A stretch of DNA of 36,585 nt from a virus. Location of the stretch: UHGV virus genome UHGV-1373817, one strand, 5' to 3'. Position numbers and translations under genes: made by a program. The number at the start of each line of letters is the position of its first letter. Positions within the stretch are counted from its first letter, which is position 1. Below the pieces are notes generated by a model. It did no database searches. It saw only the letters and a list, made by a program, of their open reading frames with translations, and had not been told where the DNA came from. Shown here piece after piece: positions 5,535-31,035 of this stretch.

Positions 5535-7606
5535 TGAATTTATTTGAATTATTCGCAAAATTAAGCCTTGATTCAAGTGATTACGAAAAAGGAATATCTG
5601 ACGCTGAAAAGTCAGCTAAGGAATTATCAGATAAGTGGGGCAAAGGCACTACCCAGATGAAAAGCGGTCTGAAAGATGTCGGAGTTGGTGTCGGTGTTTT
5701 AGGCGGACTTGGTGGTGCAGCATTTAAAGCCGCCGATGGAGTTGCTTCGACAGCTGATGAAATAGACAAGATGTCTCAGAAGCTTGGTTTGTCAAAGAAA
5801 GCATACCAGGAATGGGATTATGTGTTACAGATATCTGGAACCGACATAAACAGCATGGGAGTAGGTCTTAAGACTCTCACTAATAAGTTTGATGATGCAA
5901 AGAATGGCGGTCAAGGGTCAATCGAAATGTTCCAAAAACTTGGGCTTTCCATGGAAGACATCAAAGACATGTCCAGAGAGGAACTCTTTGCAACGACCAT
6001 ATCTCAATTCCAGAAGATGGAAGATTCTGCTGAACGTGCCGCACTTGCAAATGATTTATTTGGTAAAAGCGGACAGGAACTCGCTCCCTTATTTAATACC
6101 ACAAATGAAGAAACAGAAGCTTTAATACAGAAAGTCAATGATCTCGGCGGAGTAATGTCCGATGATGCAGTAAAAAGTGGAGCAGAGTTTAAGGACTCTC
6201 TTACATCTTTGAAGTCTTCGTTCCAAGGAGCTACAGCTTCACTTTTGAAAGAACTTGTTCCTGCTATCACAAAGCTCATGGATAAGATATCAAAATTCGT
6301 AGCTGATGGCGGTCTTGAAAAGATAATGAAGGTGATGAAAGAACTTGCTCCTGTAGTCGTTGCACTCGTTGGCGCATTTGCGACATTTAAAGTCATAAGC
6401 GGAGTAGCAAAGATTGTATCAGGACTCACAACAGCTTTTTCTGTATTATCCGGAACGATTCCTCTTGTTATTGGAGCCTTGGGGCCATTACTTCCTGTTA
6501 TCGCGGCAATTACCGCGGCAGTTGTAGGAGTTATCGCGGTTATAAAAAACTGGGACAAGATAGTCGAAGTGGCCAAAGGCGTTGCAGAGGAGTTTGTAAA
6601 CTTCTGGGGTGAAGCGTGGGAAGGTGCTAAACAGTTAGCTTCCGACATTTGGACAGGTATCACAGAAGGCATTTCCGAAGCTTGGAACGGCCTGCAAGAA
6701 TTTCTTGTTGGAGTCATTACAGAGTTCGTTGATTTTTGGTCTGAAGCATGGGAAGGAGCTAAACAGTTAGTTTCTGATGTATGGAACGGTATAAGCGAGT
6801 TCTTCAGTGGAATTTGGACATCCATAAGCGAAACGGCATCTACTATATGGAATGGCGTTACAGGTTTCTTTAGTGAAACGTGGTCGTCAATCAAAGAAAC
6901 AGCGACAGGAGTATGGAACGAGTTCAGTTCATGGATAGGTGAGACTTGGAATGGCATCAAAGAGAAAGCGTCTGAGACATGGACAAATATCAAGGAAGGC
7001 ATAGGCGAAAAGTGGAATTCCATTAAAGAGAATACATCAACAGCGTGGTCAAATATTAAGAGTGGCTTGTCGTCAGCTTGGAGCGGGATAACAAATGGAG
7101 TCAGGAGCTTTGGTTCGAGTTTCAAAAGCTTTTGGGGAGATATCTTGAGTGGTATCTCTGGAAAGACAAGTGAACTGATCACTTCGGCTCTCACATGGGG
7201 CAAAGACCTTATTGATAACTTCATTGGCGGTATTAAGTCAATGATGGGAAAGCTTGGAGACGCTGTTAAGGGTATCGCAAGCAAGGTTAAGAGCTTCCTT
7301 GGATTCTCAGAACCGGAAGAAGGACCTCTTTCAAATTTCCATACTTATGCACCGGATATGATAGACCTTTTCACTAAAGGCATTTACGACAACATGAGAC
7401 AGGTTGAAACAGCATCAAGTGATTTAGCTGAGGCTATAAGACCTGACTTAACAGGCGGACTTGGAACCTTGGCTGTTGGCGGAACAGTTGCTGCAGCGGG
7501 TGTCGGTGGAGATTTAATCATTCCAGTATATATAGGAGCAAATAAACTCGATGAAATATTAATCAAACAGGAACAGCTCATCAATTACAGAAGCGGAGGA
7601 AGGTAA
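5534..7606 (+). CDS. Tail tape measure protein
   Basis: 690 aa after the G/GT chaperones. Hydrophobic Gly/Ala-rich segments. A long array of ~11-aa tryptophan repeats (W..I/W..G). Confidence 0.8.
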   Translation: MNLFELFAKLSLDSSDYEKGISDAEKSAKELSDKWGKGTTQMKSGLKDVGVGVGVLGGLGGAAFKAADGVASTADEIDKMSQKLGLSKKAYQEWDYVLQISGTDINSMGVGLKTLTNKFDDAKNGGQGSIEMFQKLGLSMEDIKDMSREELFATTISQFQKMEDSAERAALANDLFGKSGQELAPLFNTTNEETEALIQKVNDLGGVMSDDAVKSGAEFKDSLTSLKSSFQGATASLLKELVPAITKLMDKISKFVADGGLEKIMKVMKELAPVVVALVGAFATFKVISGVAKIVSGLTTAFSVLSGTIPLVIGALGPLLPVIAAITAAVVGVIAVIKNWDKIVEVAKGVAEEFVNFWGEAWEGAKQLASDIWTGITEGISEAWNGLQEFLVGVITEFVDFWSEAWEGAKQLVSDVWNGISEFFSGIWTSISETASTIWNGVTGFFSETWSSIKETATGVWNEFSSWIGETWNGIKEKASETWTNIKEGIGEKWNSIKENTSTAWSNIKSGLSSAWSGITNGVRSFGSSFKSFWGDILSGISGKTSELITSALTWGKDLIDNFIGGIKSMMGKLGDAVKGIASKVKSFLGFSEPEEGPLSNFHTYAPDMIDLFTKGIYDNMRQVETASSDLAEAIRPDLTGGLGTLAVGGTVAAAGVGGDLIIPVYIGANKLDEILIKQEQLINYRSGGR
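6591..6853 (+). repeat. ~132-bp tandem duplication inside the TMP (two 44-aa units FV[ND]FW[GS]EAWEGAKQL[AV]SD[IV]W..)
   Basis: Copy 1 at ~6591-6721 and copy 2 at ~6723-6853, with about 80% nucleotide identity by eye. Confidence 0.5.
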
Positions 7607-7975
7607 ATGTTAACAAGTTATCCAATATTACTTAATAATGTGACACTTCCCTTCCCTTCTGGATGGGATGAATCATATGACGTGATTGAAACTGTAAATC
7701 AGACAGAAGCGGGTACGGACTCAATCGAAGTCCAGAGATATGACAAGCTCTCTGTCTCTGTGTCAACAACATGCTTATCTGATCTAGCTGAAACACTTGC
7801 CGGATTAAAAGATGTAGATGTAATCGTATTGAAATATTACGACTTAAAAACAAAAGCATATAAAGAAAGAAATGTCCGAATGCGCAACTTTACAGCAAAG
7901 CTGTCTAAAAGCTCGCATACACTCTCAGCAACTAACGGAGTCTGGGACATATCTTTCAAATTGGAGGAATTTTAA
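7607..7975 (+). CDS. Small distal-tail (Dit-like) protein, putative
   Basis: Immediately after the TMP. TAATG overlap with the next gene. Confidence 0.4.
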   Translation: MLTSYPILLNNVTLPFPSGWDESYDVIETVNQTEAGTDSIEVQRYDKLSVSVSTTCLSDLAETLAGLKDVDVIVLKYYDLKTKAYKERNVRMRNFTAKLSKSSHTLSATNGVWDISFKLEEF

Positions 7976-9756
7976 TGTACGAAGTAAGCCAAAAGTATAT
8001 AACGGCTATGAATAAGCCAGTAATACGCTCTAAGCTGTGCCTCGTACTTGATGAAGAAGAGCTTACTGAGGCAGATATCTTGGCAGGCTCTTTTTCCATA
8101 TCAAATCAGTGTACGGACACAAGCGACATAACGCTTGGAGCTGTATATATTGGGGAACTGTCAGTTACATTTTTGCGATCAGTGACAGTGTCTCGAAATA
8201 GTTGGAAAGGTAGGCAGATAACAGCCTCATATAAATTATTAGTAGACACAGATGAATGGGAAGAAGTTCCTTTAGGTGTCTATACCATATCAGAGGCAAC
8301 ATATTCGAAGGTAGGTGTTGAAGTAAAGGCCTACGATAATATGAGCCTCCTGGATAAGAAATATACCACGGATGCAACAAGCGGAACGCCTTATGCATTA
8401 CTTAGCACTATGGCATCAGCTTGTGGCGTTACTTTAGGAAATACAGAGCAAGAAATCAGAGCCTTACCAAACGGAACTGAGACATTAACTCTGTATACAC
8501 CAAATGATTGTGAGACGTGGAGAGATTTGACCTCGTGTGTGGCTCAAGCAGTGGGGTGTTTTGCTTTTAGCGATAGATTGGGCAATATAACCCTAAAACG
8601 GCTCTATAGCCCCTCAGAAGCGACGATAGACACAAGTCACCGATATACGGGTGCAAAAATATCAGATTTTATCACTTATTACTCAGGGATCTCGCTTGTT
8701 AACCTCAGAACAGAGTCAACAGAGTATTATGGAGACCTTTACGACGATACAGGAGCCACGATCAATTTAGGGACTAATCCACTGCTCCAATACGGCACTA
8801 AAAACCACCGTGAAGAGATGGCAAGGCGAATACTTGCAGAAGTAGAGAACTACAGATACGTTCCTTGCTCTGCAGCACTCCCAAGTGCTTATGTATGTCT
8901 TGATCTAGGCGATGTAATCACATTAACCGATGGATTAGCCGGTCAATCATCTGCTGTCTGCGTAATGAGGTACGATTTTAATAAGCAGGATGGCTTTGAG
9001 TTTAGAACCTATGGCGATGACCCCGACTTGGCAAACGCACGAAGCAAGGTAGATAAAGATATCAGCGGCCTTCTGGCGAATGCGGAACAAGATAAATTCG
9101 TTGTCTATTCTTTCAAGAATTCCGAAGATATTACCATTGAAGATGGTCAGACGCTCAGAGTAATTAACCTTAGAATTGCATCTATCAACGATACGACAGT
9201 AATCTTTCAGGGTGAGATAACCTGCGAGGAATCTGCTGATCGCGGCAAGGTTAAAGTCCATTACAAGCTTAACAACAGTGATATCGATTATGCCCCAGAA
9301 GAAACATGGCTAGAAGGTAAGCACATATTGAGCCTGCTTTACAAGATGGAGATTGACTACTCGCAGCAATACCAGTGGGAAGTATACCTTGAGGCTGTAG
9401 GCGGAGATATAACCATCAAGGCCGGCGAGTCAAACGGCATCATATCTGGTATTGGTCTTGTAGCTTCAGATAAATGGACAGGCTACCTTGATTTCCAAGA
9501 AAGAATCGGAAGAATCAATCTTGACGATATCACGGTTAAGCCATTCACCGACACGACATTTAATGTATCAACTAAGATTCCGACAGGCGATAGCTTAACA
9601 GACGAGCTTGGAGCAATCACACTTGATACAGATATCGTAACTATAAAAGGCTTCACAGAGGCTTTATATTTCAACAAGTATCCATTACATGACCATTATT
9701 GGAGAGAAATCCAAGATATGAAATGGTCAGAGGTTGAAGATACATATTTCTGGTAA
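7975..9756 (+). CDS. Tail tip / Tal-like tail protein (Prophage_tail-like)
   Basis: 593 aa after TMP/Dit, the usual position of the tail-associated lysin or tip protein. Confidence 0.55.
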   Translation: MYEVSQKYITAMNKPVIRSKLCLVLDEEELTEADILAGSFSISNQCTDTSDITLGAVYIGELSVTFLRSVTVSRNSWKGRQITASYKLLVDTDEWEEVPLGVYTISEATYSKVGVEVKAYDNMSLLDKKYTTDATSGTPYALLSTMASACGVTLGNTEQEIRALPNGTETLTLYTPNDCETWRDLTSCVAQAVGCFAFSDRLGNITLKRLYSPSEATIDTSHRYTGAKISDFITYYSGISLVNLRTESTEYYGDLYDDTGATINLGTNPLLQYGTKNHREEMARRILAEVENYRYVPCSAALPSAYVCLDLGDVITLTDGLAGQSSAVCVMRYDFNKQDGFEFRTYGDDPDLANARSKVDKDISGLLANAEQDKFVVYSFKNSEDITIEDGQTLRVINLRIASINDTTVIFQGEITCEESADRGKVKVHYKLNNSDIDYAPEETWLEGKHILSLLYKMEIDYSQQYQWEVYLEAVGGDITIKAGESNGIISGIGLVASDKWTGYLDFQERIGRINLDDITVKPFTDTTFNVSTKIPTGDSLTDELGAITLDTDIVTIKGFTEALYFNKYPLHDHYWREIQDMKWSEVEDTYFW

Positions 9757-25376: not shown

Positions 25377-26165
25377 ATGGCAAAAAGATACTTTTGGCTA
25401 AAGCTTAAAGATAACTTTTTCAGCGACAAAAGAATAAAAAAGCTCCGTAAGATAGCCGGAGGAGACACATACACGGTTATATTCCTCAAGATGATGCTCA
25501 GGACACTCCAAACAGATGGGGTTATCGAATACGAAGGGATAGAAAGCACATTTGCTGAAGAACTTAGCCTAGATCTTGATGAAGAGCCGGACAATGTGCA
25601 GGTAACCGTCAACTATCTCTTAGCTTCTGGACTGCTTGTTGACCTGGGGGAGAACAAATATCTTCTCCCTACAGTCCGAGAGAATACAGGAGGGGAAACA
25701 GCGGCAGCCGAACGTATGAGAAATATGCGAAAGCGTAACAATGTTACACCTATGTTACGTGATGGTTACGTAGAGAAAGAGATAGAGAAAGAGAAAGAGA
25801 AGAGAAAGAAAGTAGATTATCAGCAGATAGCTGATATGTATAACGATACTTGCGTATCGTTCCCAAGGCTCAAAACACTATCTGAATCAAGAAAGCAGGC
25901 TATTAAGGCAAGGCTTAAGACATATACCATAGATGACTTTAAGAAAATGTTTGAAAAGGCTGAGTCTTCTGCATTCCTTAAAGGTGGAAATGATAGAAAC
26001 TGGTCAGCGACATTTGACTGGATGATTAAAGATTCAAATATGGCAAAGATTCTCGATGGTAACTATGACAGCAACAAAAAGGTTAAAAAAACAAGATACG
26101 ATGCAGCGGATAAAGAGGAAAGACTAGACGATTTAACAGCAATAGAGAACATGTATTTAGAATAG
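25377..26165 (+). CDS. Phage replisome organiser (N-terminal domain) with DnaD-like C-terminus
   Basis: MAKRYFWLKLKDNFFSDKRIKKL is the Rep_Org_N signature start. C-terminal FLKGGNDRNWSATFDWMIK is DnaD-like. Confidence 0.7.
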   Translation: MAKRYFWLKLKDNFFSDKRIKKLRKIAGGDTYTVIFLKMMLRTLQTDGVIEYEGIESTFAEELSLDLDEEPDNVQVTVNYLLASGLLVDLGENKYLLPTVRENTGGETAAAERMRNMRKRNNVTPMLRDGYVEKEIEKEKEKRKKVDYQQIADMYNDTCVSFPRLKTLSESRKQAIKARLKTYTIDDFKKMFEKAESSAFLKGGNDRNWSATFDWMIKDSNMAKILDGNYDSNKKVKKTRYDAADKEERLDDLTAIENMYLE

Positions 26166-26178
26166 GGGAGATAAACAC

Positions 26179-26604
26179 ATGGAAAGAACAACCGAATATA
26201 TGACTGATGGAGAAATAGTGAGGTCATACAAGCTCTCACGAGATAAAGGAGAGCAGATAACAATACTCGCAGAGCTTAATGCTTGTGATACGGAAACGAT
26301 CATGGCAATCCTGCTGAGATATGGAGCGATAGACAAAAGCGATATGTATACAGTCAAGTGTATGTACTGCGGGGCTGAGGTGATGCTTCCATCAAGACGG
26401 TGGAAACATATCTGTCCGGAGTGCAGACGCAGGAATGAAGCTATCAAAGAGATTAGATATAAGCTCAGGCTAAATGCTACCAATCTCCAGAATACCATGA
26501 GACGCGTTGCAGAGATTAATAACGACACTAAAAAGCTTCAGAAAGAACTGGAGGAGCTTGAGAAAGAAAGAGGAACTATCAATGGAAAGAAGAAAAGGAA
26601 ATAA
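26179..26604 (+). CDS. Zn-ribbon hypothetical protein
   Basis: CMYCG...CPEC. Confidence 0.4.
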   Translation: MERTTEYMTDGEIVRSYKLSRDKGEQITILAELNACDTETIMAILLRYGAIDKSDMYTVKCMYCGAEVMLPSRRWKHICPECRRRNEAIKEIRYKLRLNATNLQNTMRRVAEINNDTKKLQKELEELEKERGTINGKKKRK

Positions 26605-26750
26605 AGAAAGGAGTAACATCTAATCCCTATGAAGTAGGGTTCCTGGATAAAGATGTCATTAAATTCAGGGTAAAAGCCATTGAAATAGCGTGAAACGGTA
26701 ACGGAGTAGCATTGGAAGTCTAAATGGATTAACCACAGTCGATTAGATTT

Positions 26751-27488
26751 GTGGTTGATGTGAAAAGAAAAGTAGTTTGGATAAGTGCAGGAGTATCAAG
26801 CTTTATAGCCGGATATCTTGTGAAAGAAACTGTAACAGATTGGATATACATAGATGTAGCAGACCAACATCCGGATAGCATCCGATTCATACATGACTGT
26901 GAGAAAGTGTTGGGACAGCCTATACAAATTCTTAAGTCTGAAGAATACAAGGATGTAGCCGATGTGGTGAGAAAAACTCGAATGATAAACAGCCCTTGGG
27001 GAGCTAGTTGTACAGGAATGCTTAAGAAAGCGGTAAGAAAACATTGGGAGCAGGATCATTTGAAAGATGAATTAACATACGTCTGGGGAATGGATGCAAA
27101 GGAAAAAAGAAGAGCCGAAAGCATTATTCAGAACTTCCCAGAGTTTGAGCATGAGTTTCCATTAATAGACAGAAACATCTCAAAGCAGGACTGCCACGGC
27201 ATCATACAGCAGTTAGGAATTAAAAGGCCGGTAATGTATGACCTTGGATATTCAAACAATAACTGCATCGGATGCGTAAAAGGTGGAATGTACTACTGGA
27301 ATATGATCAGGAAGGACTTTCCAGAAGTGTTCAAGCATCGGGCAGAACTAGAAAGAGAGATAGGACATAGTTGCTTAAATGGAGTGTTTCTGGATGAGCT
27401 TGACCCTAAAGCAGGAAGAAAGAGTGAAGAGATAACAGGGGACTGTGGAGTTATCTGCTACTTGGAATATATGAATGTAAAGGAATAG
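26751..27488 (+). CDS. PAPS-reductase-family protein with a degenerate PP-loop
   Basis: VWISAGVSS replaces SGGKDS. C-terminal MYDLGYSNNNCIGC matches the LYDxGYxSxGCxxC family motif. GTG start. Confidence 0.55.
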   Translation: MVDVKRKVVWISAGVSSFIAGYLVKETVTDWIYIDVADQHPDSIRFIHDCEKVLGQPIQILKSEEYKDVADVVRKTRMINSPWGASCTGMLKKAVRKHWEQDHLKDELTYVWGMDAKEKRRAESIIQNFPEFEHEFPLIDRNISKQDCHGIIQQLGIKRPVMYDLGYSNNNCIGCVKGGMYYWNMIRKDFPEVFKHRAELEREIGHSCLNGVFLDELDPKAGRKSEEITGDCGVICYLEYMNVKE

Positions 27489-27490
27489 AT

Positions 27491-28756
27491 ATGGACGATA
27501 TGATTATTGATTGCTTCGCCGGTGGTGGCGGGGCAAGCGTGGGAATAGAAATGGCATTAGGGCGTCATGTTGATATAGCTGTTAATCATGACCCGCAGGC
27601 CATAAGGATGCACAAGGTTAACCATCCGGATACATTACATCTAACTGAGGATATCTTTTCAGTAGACTTGGAAAGATATGTAGATGGCAGAAGAGTGCCT
27701 TTGATGTGGGCGAGTCCTGATTGTACAAGCCACAGCAAGGCAAAAGGTGGACAGCCAAGAAACAGCGGATTAAGAATACTTCCCTGGGCGGTTCATAAAC
27801 ATGCGAAGGTTCTTAATCCAGAGGTAATTATTATGGAAAATGTTGAGGAAATACAGGAATGGGGACCTTTGAATGAATATGGATTTCCAATAAAGGAAAG
27901 AAAAGGAGAGGAATATAAGCGGTTTGTAGGAGCCATGGAAGACCTTGGATACAACTTTGATTGCAGAGAGCTTGTAGCTGCTGATTACGGCGCACCCACA
28001 ACACGAAAAAGATGGTATGCAGTATTAAGAAAAGACGGAAGGGATATAGTTTTCCCTGATCAGACTCACAGCAAGGATGGAATCGAATATGATAAATGGC
28101 TTGAGTGTGGCGATTATATCGACTGGAGTGACCTTGGGAAATCTGTATTTGACAGAAAGAAGCCATTAGCTGAGGCTACACAGAAAAGAATAGCTTTAGG
28201 CATTCAGAAGTACATCGTTAATAATCCTCATCCTTATATGGTAAGGAACAATCAAGTGGCTTCATTCCTTATTCAGTATCACGGTGAGACAAGGGAAGGA
28301 GATTGCAGAGGGCAGTACCTGGATGAACCTATAAAGACATTAGATACAAGCAACAGATATGGCTTAGTAAGTGCCTTTTTAATTAAGTACTACGGTACAG
28401 GATGCGGCCAAGAGCTTAGCCTTCCACTTGGAACCATAACCACAAAGGATAGATTTGGACTTGTTACGGTAGAAATCAACGGAGAGACATACAGAATCAA
28501 AGATATATTCTTGAGGATGCTTAAACCAGAGGAGCTTAAGGTATTACAAGGATTTCCAAAGGATTACATCATAGACAGGGATATAAATTGGAAACCTTAT
28601 CCGATAAAAGAGCAGGTTGCAAGAATAGGTAACAGTGTAGTGCCTGTAATGGCTGAATCGCTTGTCAGAGCTAATTGCAGCTATTTGAGAATCGGAGAAA
28701 GAACGCCAAATATTACATTTAGAAATGTTAATGGACAGATGGAAATAGCAGTTTAG
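27491..28756 (+). CDS. DNA cytosine-5 methyltransferase
   Basis: Motif I DCFAGGGGAS. A motif IV variant SPDC. Motif VI ENV. RxR motif TTRKRWYAV. Motif X RIGNSVVPV. Confidence 0.75.
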   Translation: MDDMIIDCFAGGGGASVGIEMALGRHVDIAVNHDPQAIRMHKVNHPDTLHLTEDIFSVDLERYVDGRRVPLMWASPDCTSHSKAKGGQPRNSGLRILPWAVHKHAKVLNPEVIIMENVEEIQEWGPLNEYGFPIKERKGEEYKRFVGAMEDLGYNFDCRELVAADYGAPTTRKRWYAVLRKDGRDIVFPDQTHSKDGIEYDKWLECGDYIDWSDLGKSVFDRKKPLAEATQKRIALGIQKYIVNNPHPYMVRNNQVASFLIQYHGETREGDCRGQYLDEPIKTLDTSNRYGLVSAFLIKYYGTGCGQELSLPLGTITTKDRFGLVTVEINGETYRIKDIFLRMLKPEELKVLQGFPKDYIIDRDINWKPYPIKEQVARIGNSVVPVMAESLVRANCSYLRIGERTPNITFRNVNGQMEIAV

Positions 28757-28767
28757 GAGGTGCAAAC

Positions 28768-28935
28768 ATGGATGCGAAGGAATTAACACAGAAATATTTT
28801 AAAGACCATCAGGACATATATGAGTTGAAGAAACAAGTCGAGTATCTCACTAATGAGGTGACTCTTTTAAGAAGATTCGTGGACGATATGAAGATAGATA
28901 TAAAGATGCTTCAGAATGTAAGGAGGGGGGGATGA
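28768..28935 (+). CDS. Small coiled-coil protein
   Basis: RBS GGAGGT. 55 aa. Ends in a G7 tract. Confidence 0.3.
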   Translation: MDAKELTQKYFKDHQDIYELKKQVEYLTNEVTLLRRFVDDMKIDIKMLQNVRRGG

Positions 28936-29035
28936 CAAAAGAAGAAATAGAGAAATGCTTGAAAGGAGCCAAGAATGATAAACGTAGAAAAGCGTGAAAT
29001 AGCAATTAGAAGTGTTGATAACGGGGGGGAGTTAT

Positions 29036-29668
29036 ATGTTAAACGAATGGATAGAAGCTAAGATACAAGATAGCAAAGATGTATTAAGACTTGCAGCGGA
29101 AATATCCCAAGAATATTATCAAAAACCCCTGATCATAACTTATTCTGGAGGAAAAGATTCGGATGTGATGCTTCAGCTCGCAATGGAATGCCTGGAGCCT
29201 AATCAGTTCGAAGTGTTAAACAGTCACACAACAGTCGATGCCCCCGAAACTGTATATCATATAAGAGATAAATTCAAAGAACTTGAAGATGCAGGAATTA
29301 AAACAACAATTAAATATCCAAGATACAAAGATGGTAGATATAAGTCAATGTGGGCATTGATAGAAGACAAGATGATACCGCCCACAAGAATTCAACGATA
29401 TTGTTGCGAAGAACTTAAAGAAACAAGTACGTCAAACAGATTTGCGGCGGTTGGAGTAAGGAAAGCAGAATCAGCAGGAAGAAAAGGGAGAGAGGTGTTT
29501 TCCACTTACGGAAGGACTAAAGCCGAAGCCCGCCACTACTACTACTCACACATCAAAGAGGTTTTTGAAACGGCAAAGCAGAAAACACTTGAGGGGGGCA
29601 GTTTCCAAACGATGACAATGTATGGGACTGCACATTCATTTCCAAAGCAAAACACAATGAAAATTTGA
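29036..29668 (+). CDS. PAPS-reductase-family protein, N-terminal part (intact PP-loop)
   Basis: LIITYSGGKDSDVMLQLAME and RIQRYCCEELK. The longest ORF starts at the GTG at 29012; the ATG at 29036 follows a G7 SD-like tract. Confidence 0.65.
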   Translation: MLNEWIEAKIQDSKDVLRLAAEISQEYYQKPLIITYSGGKDSDVMLQLAMECLEPNQFEVLNSHTTVDAPETVYHIRDKFKELEDAGIKTTIKYPRYKDGRYKSMWALIEDKMIPPTRIQRYCCEELKETSTSNRFAAVGVRKAESAGRKGREVFSTYGRTKAEARHYYYSHIKEVFETAKQKTLEGGSFQTMTMYGTAHSFPKQNTMKI

Positions 29669-30018
29669 TATGTAACCCGATATATGAATGGACAGATCAT
29701 GAAGTGTGGTTATTTATACGAGACAGAAAGATTAAATATAACCCGCTATATGATCAAGGGTACTCAAGAGTCGGATGTATAGGGTGTCCTTTAGCAAGGA
29801 ATCAGGTCTTAGAGTTAGAGAAAAACCCTAAATATAAATTGAATTACATCAGAGCTTTTGACAGGATGCTAAAGAAAAGAAAGGCTGCGGGGAAAGATGA
29901 CGTTACAGGCAAAACCGGTCTTCATTGCTGGAAAGATGGTGAGGCGGTTTATAGATGGTGGATTAACGACCAGGGTATCGAAGGGCAGACAGATATATAT
30001 GACTTTTTAGACAAATAA
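29593..30018 (+). CDS. PAPS-reductase C-terminal part in the -1 frame (gene split at a G6 tract)
   Basis: The -1 frame opens exactly at the G6 run 29593-29598. It encodes NPIYEWTDHEVWLFIRDRKIKYNPLYDQGYSRVGCIGCPL, the conserved C-terminal block. Confidence 0.55.
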   Translation, partial: GGQFPNDDNVWDCTFISKAKHNENLICNPIYEWTDHEVWLFIRDRKIKYNPLYDQGYSRVGCIGCPLARNQVLELEKNPKYKLNYIRAFDRMLKKRKAAGKDDVTGKTGLHCWKDGEAVYRWWINDQGIEGQTDIYDFLDK

Positions 30019-30039
30019 TAGAACATCGCGAATAGGAGG

Positions 30040-30387
30040 ATGTATGACAAGAGAAGAAGCAATAAAAGTACTGAATATGGTCGACGTATGGCTATCAAGG
30101 CACTAGAGCAAGAGCCTTGCGGGGGTTGCGTGAGTAGAGAGCAATTAAAAAGAGAACTTCATGCGCAAATGGCGGTTAATGCAATAACAAAAGAAACCGC
30201 AGAAGATATGCTCAATCATTTACCATCAGTTACACCACAGCCAAAGACAGGGCATTGGATAGCAACAGGAGATTATTTTACAGGGGCTTATGGCAGTATA
30301 GACTATGTCGAATGCTCATGTTGTGGGTATGAAAGCCTTGAAGAAGGGCATTATTGCCCTTTCTGTGGAGCAAGAATGGAGGATTAG
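30040..30387 (+). CDS. Zn-ribbon hypothetical protein (start uncertain)
   Basis: C-terminal CSCCGY...CPFCG. Confidence 0.35.
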   Translation: MYDKRRSNKSTEYGRRMAIKALEQEPCGGCVSREQLKRELHAQMAVNAITKETAEDMLNHLPSVTPQPKTGHWIATGDYFTGAYGSIDYVECSCCGYESLEEGHYCPFCGARMED

Positions 30388-30559
30388 AAATGACAGTAAA
30401 AAAAGCAATAGAGGTTTTAAAAAGCGAGTGTTATGTATTTAATCCGCGCGGACTTTGAAGAAGGGTGTCGTTACTGCAACAGGCGGGGCAGTGACAGATA
30501 TGTGAACAAAGAGGAATACTACGATTAAATGCAAAGGTAGTCATAGAATAGGGGTAAAA

Positions 30560-31018
30560 ATGGAAAAGAAAGAAATAATTGAATTAATCCATCAAATATG
30601 CTTTGAACTGATGGATTCGATTAATGCTGAGGAAGTATCCTTCCACGATGATTTGGTTCTCCAGATCAATAAGAAAGTTTGTGAAGAAATTGACAAACGG
30701 TTGGGTGAGGAAGAGCCCTGGAGTGGGTATATGAAAAAGAAACTTACACAGCTGTTTATAAGAGACTACAAAGAAGAAGGAGACTGCGATAACTGCAAGC
30801 ACTGTGGCGACCCGATAGAAATATGCGTATTAAAAAAATGTCACAGAGCTATTGACGAGTTTAACGACGCTTACGAATGCGCATACACAAAAGACGATAT
30901 GACGAAAGTTAAAGCAATGCGTGAATTAATAGACTTTAAAGATGGAGGGCTAAAACCTTCACCAGAAGCACTTGATATGGCAATAAACGCGTTAATGTCG
31001 CCATTTGATGAAGTTTGA
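30560..31018 (+). CDS. Cys-rich hypothetical protein
   Basis: CDNCKHCG...C..KC. Confidence 0.35.
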   Translation: MEKKEIIELIHQICFELMDSINAEEVSFHDDLVLQINKKVCEEIDKRLGEEEPWSGYMKKKLTQLFIRDYKEEGDCDNCKHCGDPIEICVLKKCHRAIDEFNDAYECAYTKDDMTKVKAMRELIDFKDGGLKPSPEALDMAINALMSPFDEV

Positions 31019-31035
31019 AAGAGAGGTAAAGAAGA

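Follow-up and report, generated by a model that had tools for sequence, protein, structure and literature searches.

The virus genome UHGV-1373817, analysed here as a single window of 36,585 nucleotides, carries a gene of the PAPS reductase superfamily, in the following referred to as B (29036–30018, + strand), whose reading frame is split by a -1 shift at a run of six guanines (G6, 29593–29598). From sequence comparisons we conclude that this run is probably a slipped-strand ON/OFF switch of gene B, which stands at OFF in this contig and would be ON with seven guanines (G7). Upstream of B lie a second PAPS-reductase-like gene (A) and a gene for a predicted C5 cytosine DNA methyltransferase (M). 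A preliminary description of the window had considered phase variation, a pseudogene or a sequencing indel as the origin of the frameshift; the comparative data favour the first over the other two, because the tract is kept against codon usage, because its length differs between near-identical genomes, and because the OFF state accounts for roughly half of the close alleles, with an intact C-terminal frame in those that were read as DNA.

The split itself is precise. The N-terminal frame of B (29036–29668, + strand; protein label P0112) yields a product of 210 residues, closed by TGA 29666–29668, and matches positions 2–129 of the PF01507 model; its start is the ATG at 29036 and not the GTG at 29012. 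The C-terminal frame (29593–30018, + strand) is shifted by -1 relative to it, runs for 141 codons without a stop and matches PF01507 positions 134–174 (53.5 bits), so that the two halves cover complementary stretches of one model. As previously described, the conserved C-terminal block is encoded in a frame that opens exactly at GGGGGG: frame 1 is closed by TGA 29590–29592 and reopens at 29593, the first G of the tract. Likewise, we could locate both the canonical PP-loop and the CC...CxxC cluster attributed to this gene, with SGGKDS at 29144–29161 (residue 37) and the CC pair at 29402–29407 (residues 123–124) in the N-terminal part, and the CxxC within the NPLYDQGYSRVGCIGC block at 29776–29787 in the C-terminal part. 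Joined across the tract (LEGG-QFPNDDNVWDC), the protein has 327 residues and is collinear over its whole length with over 100 intact homologs, which have 320–340 residues and 57–71% identity, whereas the OFF product of 210 residues is devoid of the CxxC half of the cysteine set and of the C-terminal third of the fold. In an AlphaFold2 model of B (pLDDT 78), the G tract, which encodes a Gly-Gly pair in a surface loop, falls just after the helix formed by residues 170–186; judged from this model, it is a tolerant site, placed midway through the catalytic domain. The same linker contains a second, frame-neutral repeat, (TAC)n at 29527–29538, which lies about 15–20 codons 5' of the G tract and encodes a poly-Tyr run of three to six residues among alleles (HYYYSH in the window, AYYYYYYSH in locus L040; also in L038, L229 and L287).

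To place this allele among its relatives, about 200 B-type loci (labelled L###) from IMG/VR, GTDB genomes and metagenomes, together with contigs encoding selected proteins, were compared as DNA. At the homologous Gly-Gly codons, the tract is found in frame as G7 (L038/39, L040/41), G8 (L294, L027) or G9 (L020/21), out of frame with one G too few as G6 (the window) or G7 (L293, L290, L229, L034/35), and out of frame with one G too many as G8 (L295) or G9 (L287–289, L230). A sister clade carries (GA)7–8 at the same loop, again either in frame (SERERERVGG) or out of frame (SERERE*), as in L291/292. Out-of-frame rows amount to 5 of 201 (3/121 and 2/80), all of them with G6 or longer, and not one tract-less locus changes frame at the junction. 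The clearest pair is L293 (G7) and L294 (G8), which come from different samples and assemblies and are 99.97% identical over 6,568 nt, with a single nucleotide polymorphism as their only other difference; similarly, L295 (G8) and L038 (G7) have identical flanks.

The same picture emerges on the protein level. Among the best 120 protein clusters (P### labels; clusters at 90% identity, not genomes) retrieved with residues 1–188 of B, 59 are products of 185–220 residues, and 58 of these end at the repeat, for instance with DDKARRSEGG* or IEGGGDKSQ*; the exception, P0296, ends about 25 codons earlier. These products are not cut off by contig ends, since many are encoded on contigs of 18–44 kb. For nine of the truncated clusters, there is a full-length counterpart with 97–100% identity over the common part (P0254 and P0051, 100%), and OFF alleles recur, with P0247 being found on eight contigs. 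L034 and L035, which differ by 1.25% elsewhere, share the same out-of-frame G7; their B genes are identical, leaving no differences for a comparison of synonymous and non-synonymous changes. In all OFF alleles that we read as DNA (the window, L034, L287, L290 and L291), the C-terminal frame is open, and in the window it is not more diverged than the remainder, the C-terminal part being 76% and the N-terminal part 70% identical to that of L040.

The persistence of the tract is not what codon usage would predict. Four-fold degenerate sites among B alleles are saturated (25–37% identical), GGG accounts for just 8.6% of the Gly codons in the window's other genes, and GGGGGG encodes none of the 58 other Gly-Gly pairs in the window. 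Furthermore, in L038, L040, L293 and L294, the tract is the sole run of at least six G in 6–13 kb. Since it is kept in alleles that are otherwise saturated, and since another repeat type occupies the same loop, these sequence comparisons point to a tract that is selected rather than accidental, with mutability at this site as the apparent target of selection. B thereby displays the characteristics of phase-variable loci driven by simple-sequence repeats (SSRs), namely a repeat within the open reading frame (ORF), length polymorphism, which is seen in relatives while the window's own allele is without such a pair, an intact downstream frame in the OFF state and a repeat beyond the need of the protein.

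In the mechanism that we propose, slipped-strand mispairing during phage or prophage replication would alter the tract by one G. The ON state would yield the full enzyme of 327 residues, for which the window's allele would need G7, and the OFF state, in which the G6 contig appears to be, the product of 210 residues. Switching may be reversible and adaptive, as a form of bet-hedging: the B enzyme might act on nucleic acid early in infection, in a DNA sulfur-type modification or in counter-defence, and its activity might help in hosts that attack unmarked DNA but carry a cost in the lysogen, or where the host possesses modification-dependent nucleases.

As for its genomic position, B is often the second gene of an early operon, beside a repressor/cro pair. 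In L038, L290 and L295, it lies in a rightward early operon directly after a cro-like 74-aa gene, opposite a cI-like repressor and an integrase. Such a position is typical of immediate-early counter-defence genes.

Several points weigh against the interpretation as a switch. We infer reversibility and length heterogeneity within a population from a polymorphism that is seen between genomes only; G6 and G7 are at the short end of the tracts for which high-rate switching is known; systematic homopolymer errors of short-read sequencing are possible for any single contig; and a non-adaptive mutational hotspot would yield many of the same patterns. For the window's allele, the best ON match is 76% identical, and a near-identical ON partner is missing; the counts of truncated products refer to clusters rather than genomes. 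All 80 of 80 prophage loci in genomes (41–67% identical) are without the tract; as most of the wider B family is thus tract-less, the switch would belong to sub-clades. Finally, B has no DndD/E, SspB/C or BrxC/Z/L partner in the window, and a DNA substrate is our inference.

The most serious rival is a pseudogene at a non-adaptive hotspot, in which the Gly-Gly pair happens to be encoded by GGGGGG and the OFF alleles are dead ends, their loss perhaps tolerated owing to A. We consider this unlikely. It would be in line with the absence of the tract from most of the wider family, with B copies that are broken at ordinary A-runs (the second copy in L042, and L022), and with the presence of another PAPS-like gene, A, in the same window. 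However, it does not account for a tract that is kept despite saturated synonymous sites and codon bias, nor for the different repeat type in the same loop of the sister clade; the inspected OFF alleles all retain open C-terminal frames, and the C-terminal part of the window's B is not the more diverged one. We also considered plain redundancy, in which one of two PAPS-like genes decays, an idea prompted by the broken tandem B of L042; the intact B that accompanies A in three other loci (L141, L146 and L235) weakens it.

With regard to broken copies of B, the L042 locus (6001–7988 of a Logan SRR28378875 contig) encodes an N6/N4 methyltransferase and then a tandem pair of B paralogs, of which the second has a frameshift in AAGAAAAGAG near residue 80; the B copy of L022 is split at the A-run GTAAAAAAGC, at a position similar to that in L042.

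A sequencing or assembly indel, by which the phage would truly have G7 and an intact B, with one base dropped by MEGAHIT, appears improbable to us. Homopolymers are a classic site of indel errors, and the window's allele is found on one contig only: megablast of 26600–30200 against 50,697 phage records returned no near-identical DNA, a gapped exact pattern spanning the G6 tract had no matches in IMG/VR, and no near-identical relative of the allele turned up in the phage, IMG/VR or protein collections, which leaves its tract length without a sibling for comparison. A further locus, L127, even contains nine G6–G8 runs with broken ORFs that appear artefactual. Nevertheless, identical OFF alleles recur over samples and assemblers, and the OFF state is also seen among alleles with (GA)n, a repeat that is not error-prone. 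The A family, taken from the same data sources, serves as a control for assembly quality: among the best 120 homologs, none is truncated. Moreover, if the population varies, an assembly reports a variant that is present, so that the OFF state can be real. Given the family-wide pattern of the tract, sequencing error is therefore insufficient as a general explanation.

The poly-G runs in L127 (5770–7216 of JAZSDZ010000095.1, Candidatus Fimenecus sp.) lie within 1.5 kb, 3' of an intact B homolog. Each of the nine forms the end of one short ORF and the start of an overlapping ORF in another frame, as in a gene of about 600 codons broken nine times; they represent either a poly-G assembly artefact or a hypervariable gene with multiple tracts.

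Programmed recoding, in which a -1 ribosomal frameshift on G_GGG_GGC or transcriptional slippage would make the full protein, is very improbable: although G GGG GGC at 29593–29599 fits the X XXY YYZ pattern in the zero frame, a -1 slip would yield the homolog-like junction EGGQFPN, and a single G is likewise missing from several other OFF alleles, the heptamer fit is automatic for any one-G-short tract that starts at codon position 3, L230, L287 and L295 have one G in excess and would require +1, others are on (GA)n, 196 of 201 rows of the fetched loci are in frame at the junction, and the OFF product is cut within one catalytic domain, so that just two of the four cluster-type cysteines are left. 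RNA folding of 29599–29690 revealed no downstream structure (minimum free energy -11 kcal/mol, z = +0.48 against shuffled sequences). Together, the missing stimulatory structure and the OFF alleles in both directions make a fixed programmed -1 frameshift of the dnaX type unlikely, and we rejected it.

Two further observations concern repeats within the B family. In another sub-clade (L211, L221, L223, L225 and L248; B homologs with 45–58% identity), a second poly-G site is found about 25 codons 5' of the main site, with G7–G8 encoding Arg/Gly-Gly-Gly, in frame in five of five cases. P0276 (299 residues) is a product whose B-type N-terminal part runs past the repeat into a match to PF00144 (beta-lactamase family), which may stem from a chimeric contig or from a fusion born at the repeat.

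What kind of enzyme is switched? The matches of A and B to PF01507 agree with the preliminary description, in which two PAPS-reductase-family genes bracket a C5 methyltransferase and for which searches with PF01507, DndC, SspD and BrxP profiles had been suggested. The model of B is closest in fold to CysD, the APS reductase 2goy and CysH, followed by [4Fe-4S] tRNA thiolases. Its scores stay far below the cut-offs of the curated CysH/APS reductase models (TIGR00434, 42.7 vs 165.1; TIGR02055, 41.6 vs 235.3; TIGR02057, 35.9 vs 254.2) and of the DndC equivalog TIGR03183 (40.4 vs 290.4), and neither dndD/dndE nor dndA/iscS is encoded on the contig. Its PADLOC matches to BrxP (1.4e-23) and DndC (3.6e-12) extend over the common domain only; for BrxP, the 327 residues of B face a model of 779 positions, of which the best stretch covers just 266–320, and the contig has no brx genes. 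The mark of CysH and APS reductases is a C-terminal catalytic cysteine motif, ECG[LI]H. This motif is absent from A and from the joined B sequence, the closest string being GLHCW, which is GLHKW in most homologs. By these sequence criteria, B is an Fe-S PP-loop enzyme of the PAPS reductase superfamily that does not qualify as CysH, DndC, SspD or BrxP. A confident placement in CysH clades, which had been named as an outcome that would speak against a DNA-related role, is not what we find: A and B are below or without curated CysH scores, and their context is one of phage early genes.

Gene A (26751–27488, + strand; 245 residues) is intact and matches PF01507 (22.7 bits, cut-off 22.5) and phrog_424 (8e-43). 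Its non-canonical PP-loop SAGVSS (26784–26801, residue 12) had been regarded as degenerate; this is incorrect, since S-x-G-x-S-S is invariant across 20 aligned A-family sequences and SAGVSS thus represents a conserved family variant. The family alignment further shows six invariant cysteines (C87, C172-x-x-C175, C208, C232 and C236) as well as the invariant blocks DQHPDS and NNNCxGCxKGG. Residues 25–237 of A align with chain C of PDB entry 21fy, ‘PptA’ (270 residues), at an E-value of 4.9e-52, and a profile of the A family covers residues 29–267 of the 270 in this chain (2.7e-58). The two have the block NNNCxGCVKGGxxYWNKIRKDFP in common, and both possess non-canonical PP-loops (SCGAPS in PptA). 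Based on the full-length similarity and the common conserved blocks, we assign A to the PptA family. Literature searches returned no paper describing PptA (PDB 21fy), and the 141-aa and 115-aa neighbours, considered as possible partner chains of 21fy, gave no meaningful PDB matches.

An AlphaFold2 model of A (pLDDT 82) is most similar to LarE, PAPS reductase and TtuA in Foldseek, for which the searched PDB set predates entry 21fy. As LarE and TtuA are [4Fe-4S] enzymes, this modelled fold suggests cluster-dependent sulfur or adenylation chemistry for A. With PADLOC, A matches positions 1–202 of the 277 in the SspD model (3.3e-16, 57.8 bits), and no sspB- or sspC-like genes are found on the contig; the CysH/APS reductase TIGR models gave no match. 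By the same kind of evidence as for B, A does not qualify as CysH, DndC, SspD or BrxP. It is 37–38% identical to genes annotated as PAPS reductases in the Vibrio phage records 168E36-1 and 236O40-1, and its best 120 homologs all have 236–281 residues. Both families are large, with about 5,000 homologs each, retrieved from a word-limited candidate set in either case.

Gene M (27491–28756, + strand; 421 residues) is an orphan C5 cytosine DNA methyltransferase by both score and motifs. It reaches 91.4 bits against PF00145 (cut-off 22) and matches phrog_116 (8e-85) and PDB 3g7u (E-value 1e-11), in which its PDC is aligned to PPC. All the motifs reported for it could be located: motif I, FAGGG (27515–27529); motif IV in its PDC variant (27716–27724); motif VI, ENV (27836–27844); motif VIII, RKR as the RxR (28004–28012); and motif X, GNSV (28628–28639). 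The variant SPDC of motif IV is kept in 34 of 34 M homologs.

Whether A, M and B form a DNA-modification module, as had been proposed, can be judged from their neighbourhoods. The proposal is borne out only in part. Pairing of A with a methyltransferase recurs: in 30 of 84 A loci in IMG/VR (not de-duplicated), an enzyme of the M family or of the N6/N4 type is encoded at most 5 kb away, and among non-redundant loci the count is 7 of 37 within 2.5 kb, with varying position and orientation. For B, by contrast, just about 10 of 193 loci have a methyltransferase neighbour, and A is present in 3 of 193. In the nearest related contig, L040 (ERZ27297822 k141_325502), the flanks (SSB, the 141-aa gene, terminase and portal) are 89–92% identical to the window on the nucleotide level, and B, in an allele with 71% identity, follows directly 3' of the 141-aa gene, while A, M and the 55-aa ORF that precedes B in the window are all missing. 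According to this comparison, 26598–31035 (+ strand) is a mosaic replacement, an accessory segment that was swapped while small patches at 30380–30516 were kept. On the neighbourhood counts and the L040 comparison, we reject an obligate A-M-B unit; B is no recurrent neighbour of methyltransferases. We regard the three rather as accessory genes at a shared hot spot, among which A and M, both intact and separately acquired, form a recurrent pair.

Besides the switch site, the 36,585 bases contain just two further runs of at least six G, and all three lie within 674 bases. These are the G7 tracts at 28925–28931 and 29023–29029, present exactly as described before. The first follows AGGAGG and abuts the ATG at 28932 of a 21-codon ORF (28932–28997). 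It also supplies the end (…RRGG*) of the 55-aa ORF (28768–28935, + strand), whose final codons cross it; this ORF has no match in Pfam or PHROG, and among the loci fetched up to that comparison it was found in the window's own contig only. One additional G would fuse the two ORFs in frame to 77 residues, and the tract could accordingly be a second repeat-controlled junction; no homologs were found with which to check this idea. The second tract lies inside the Shine-Dalgarno-like GGGGGGGAG, 4 nt 5' of the ATG of B, and is not conserved 5' of B in L038, L040 and L042. That the G7 tracts double as Shine-Dalgarno sequences, as had been put forward, is plausible from their spacing.

The window makes up nearly all of the metagenome contig k119_480990 (ENA ERZ27229672; MEGAHIT; 36.7 kb) and looks like a temperate tailed phage. 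An integrase and a repressor come first, then ERF, RusA, SSB and a replisome organiser (25377–26165); 3' of the A-M-B region lie terminase, an SPP1-type portal and head genes. The relatives of its genes are found in phages and prophages of Clostridia. The closest isolate phage is Ruminococcus gnavus phiRgPS_6 (45% amino acid identity), and the best genome match is a Candidatus Fimenecus metagenome-assembled genome (67%), with other matches in Lachnospiraceae, Oscillospiraceae and similar taxa.

Poly-G tracts are known from Campylobacter phages. B resembles the contingency loci of bacteria in that the length of an intragenic run of 6–9 G, or of a dinucleotide repeat, sets the frame, in that ON and OFF states occur among near-identical genomes, in that the downstream frame stays intact, and in that the tract is kept against codon usage. 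It differs in that a temperate phage of gut Clostridia carries it and in that its product is a PAPS-reductase-like Fe-S protein rather than a surface protein or a methyltransferase. The bacterial examples comprise the poly-G/C phase-variable genes of Campylobacter, Neisseria and Helicobacter, as well as phase-variable mod methyltransferases (e.g. PMC8355987; PMC5320596). Among the literature that we retrieved, no paper links PAPS reductases to phase variation.

The view of the preliminary description that this is not a characterised system needs qualification, given the proximity of A to the solved PptA and an anti-Dnd precedent from a Vibrio phage. In Vibrio crassostreae, an inserted pair of phage genes, p0018, a fusion of a PAPS domain with Dam, and its neighbour p0019, enables escape from the host's Dnd system (bioRxiv 10.1101/2021.05.05.442762). 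As with A and M, a phage PAPS-type domain and a DNA methyltransferase are physically linked there, and the site is a variable early region; unlike A and M, which are separate genes with a C5 enzyme, p0018 is fused and of the Dam type, and the passages of the preprint consulted here mention no repeat switch for it. A later survey places PAPS reductases in Aca-regulated anti-defence operons. JSS1_004, which we had considered as a phage ‘PAPS reductase’ anti-Dnd protein, is actually a kinase/shutoff protein and was set aside.

Sulfur insertion in DNA phosphorothioation is the function of the PAPS-reductase-domain proteins DndC, SspD and BrxP (PMC12914056; PMC12707154; PMC12839542). A and B have the same superfamily domain, and B exhibits SGGKDS and four cluster-type cysteines, but both are much shorter, score far under the cut-offs and come without the partner genes, as no gene for DndD/E, SspB/C, BrxC/Z/L or a cysteine desulfurase lies in the window. 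If A and B touch DNA, they would do so alone or with host factors. Phage genes of this kind are usually labelled as CysH/PAPS reductase ‘auxiliary metabolic genes’ (e.g. PMC13369170). While B has the fold of CysH and a CC...CxxC set that matches Fe-S APS reductases, neither A nor B has ECG[LI]H, and their context is phage replication and early genes rather than sulfate assimilation. A ‘cysH auxiliary metabolic gene’ label is thus not supported by the sequence of either gene, and both may instead serve in nucleic-acid modification or counter-defence.

Repeat-driven phase variation and phage PAPS-reductase-like genes are each already known; judged from the papers that we retrieved, it is their combination that appears to be new. 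Few viruses are known to rely on simple-sequence repeats for phenotypic variation, and a phage of Gram-positive anaerobes would now join them. For annotation, it comes with a warning, as ‘split’ or ‘truncated’ PAPS-reductase ORFs in viromes would often be switch states, not errors. Natural near-isogenic ON/OFF pairs such as L293/L294 allow direct testing of the activity. A conserved switch with about half of the close alleles OFF suggests a strong context-dependent cost and benefit, as is typical of conflict genes. Tentatively, and with less confidence than in the switch itself, we propose that temperate phages of gut Clostridia possess a poly-G/GA contingency locus which reversibly switches an early DndC/BrxP-like Fe-S enzyme that chemically marks phage DNA or disarms marking-based defence. 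If this is true, the phage population would spread its risk over hosts that destroy unmarked DNA and hosts in which marked DNA is destroyed, and the phase-variable modification systems of bacteria would have a phage counterpart in this locus. ‘PAPS reductase’ genes abound in phages and are routinely scored as auxiliary genes of sulfur metabolism; in that case, this widespread ‘cysH/PAPS reductase’ gene would be a conflict gene and not a sulfur-metabolism gene.

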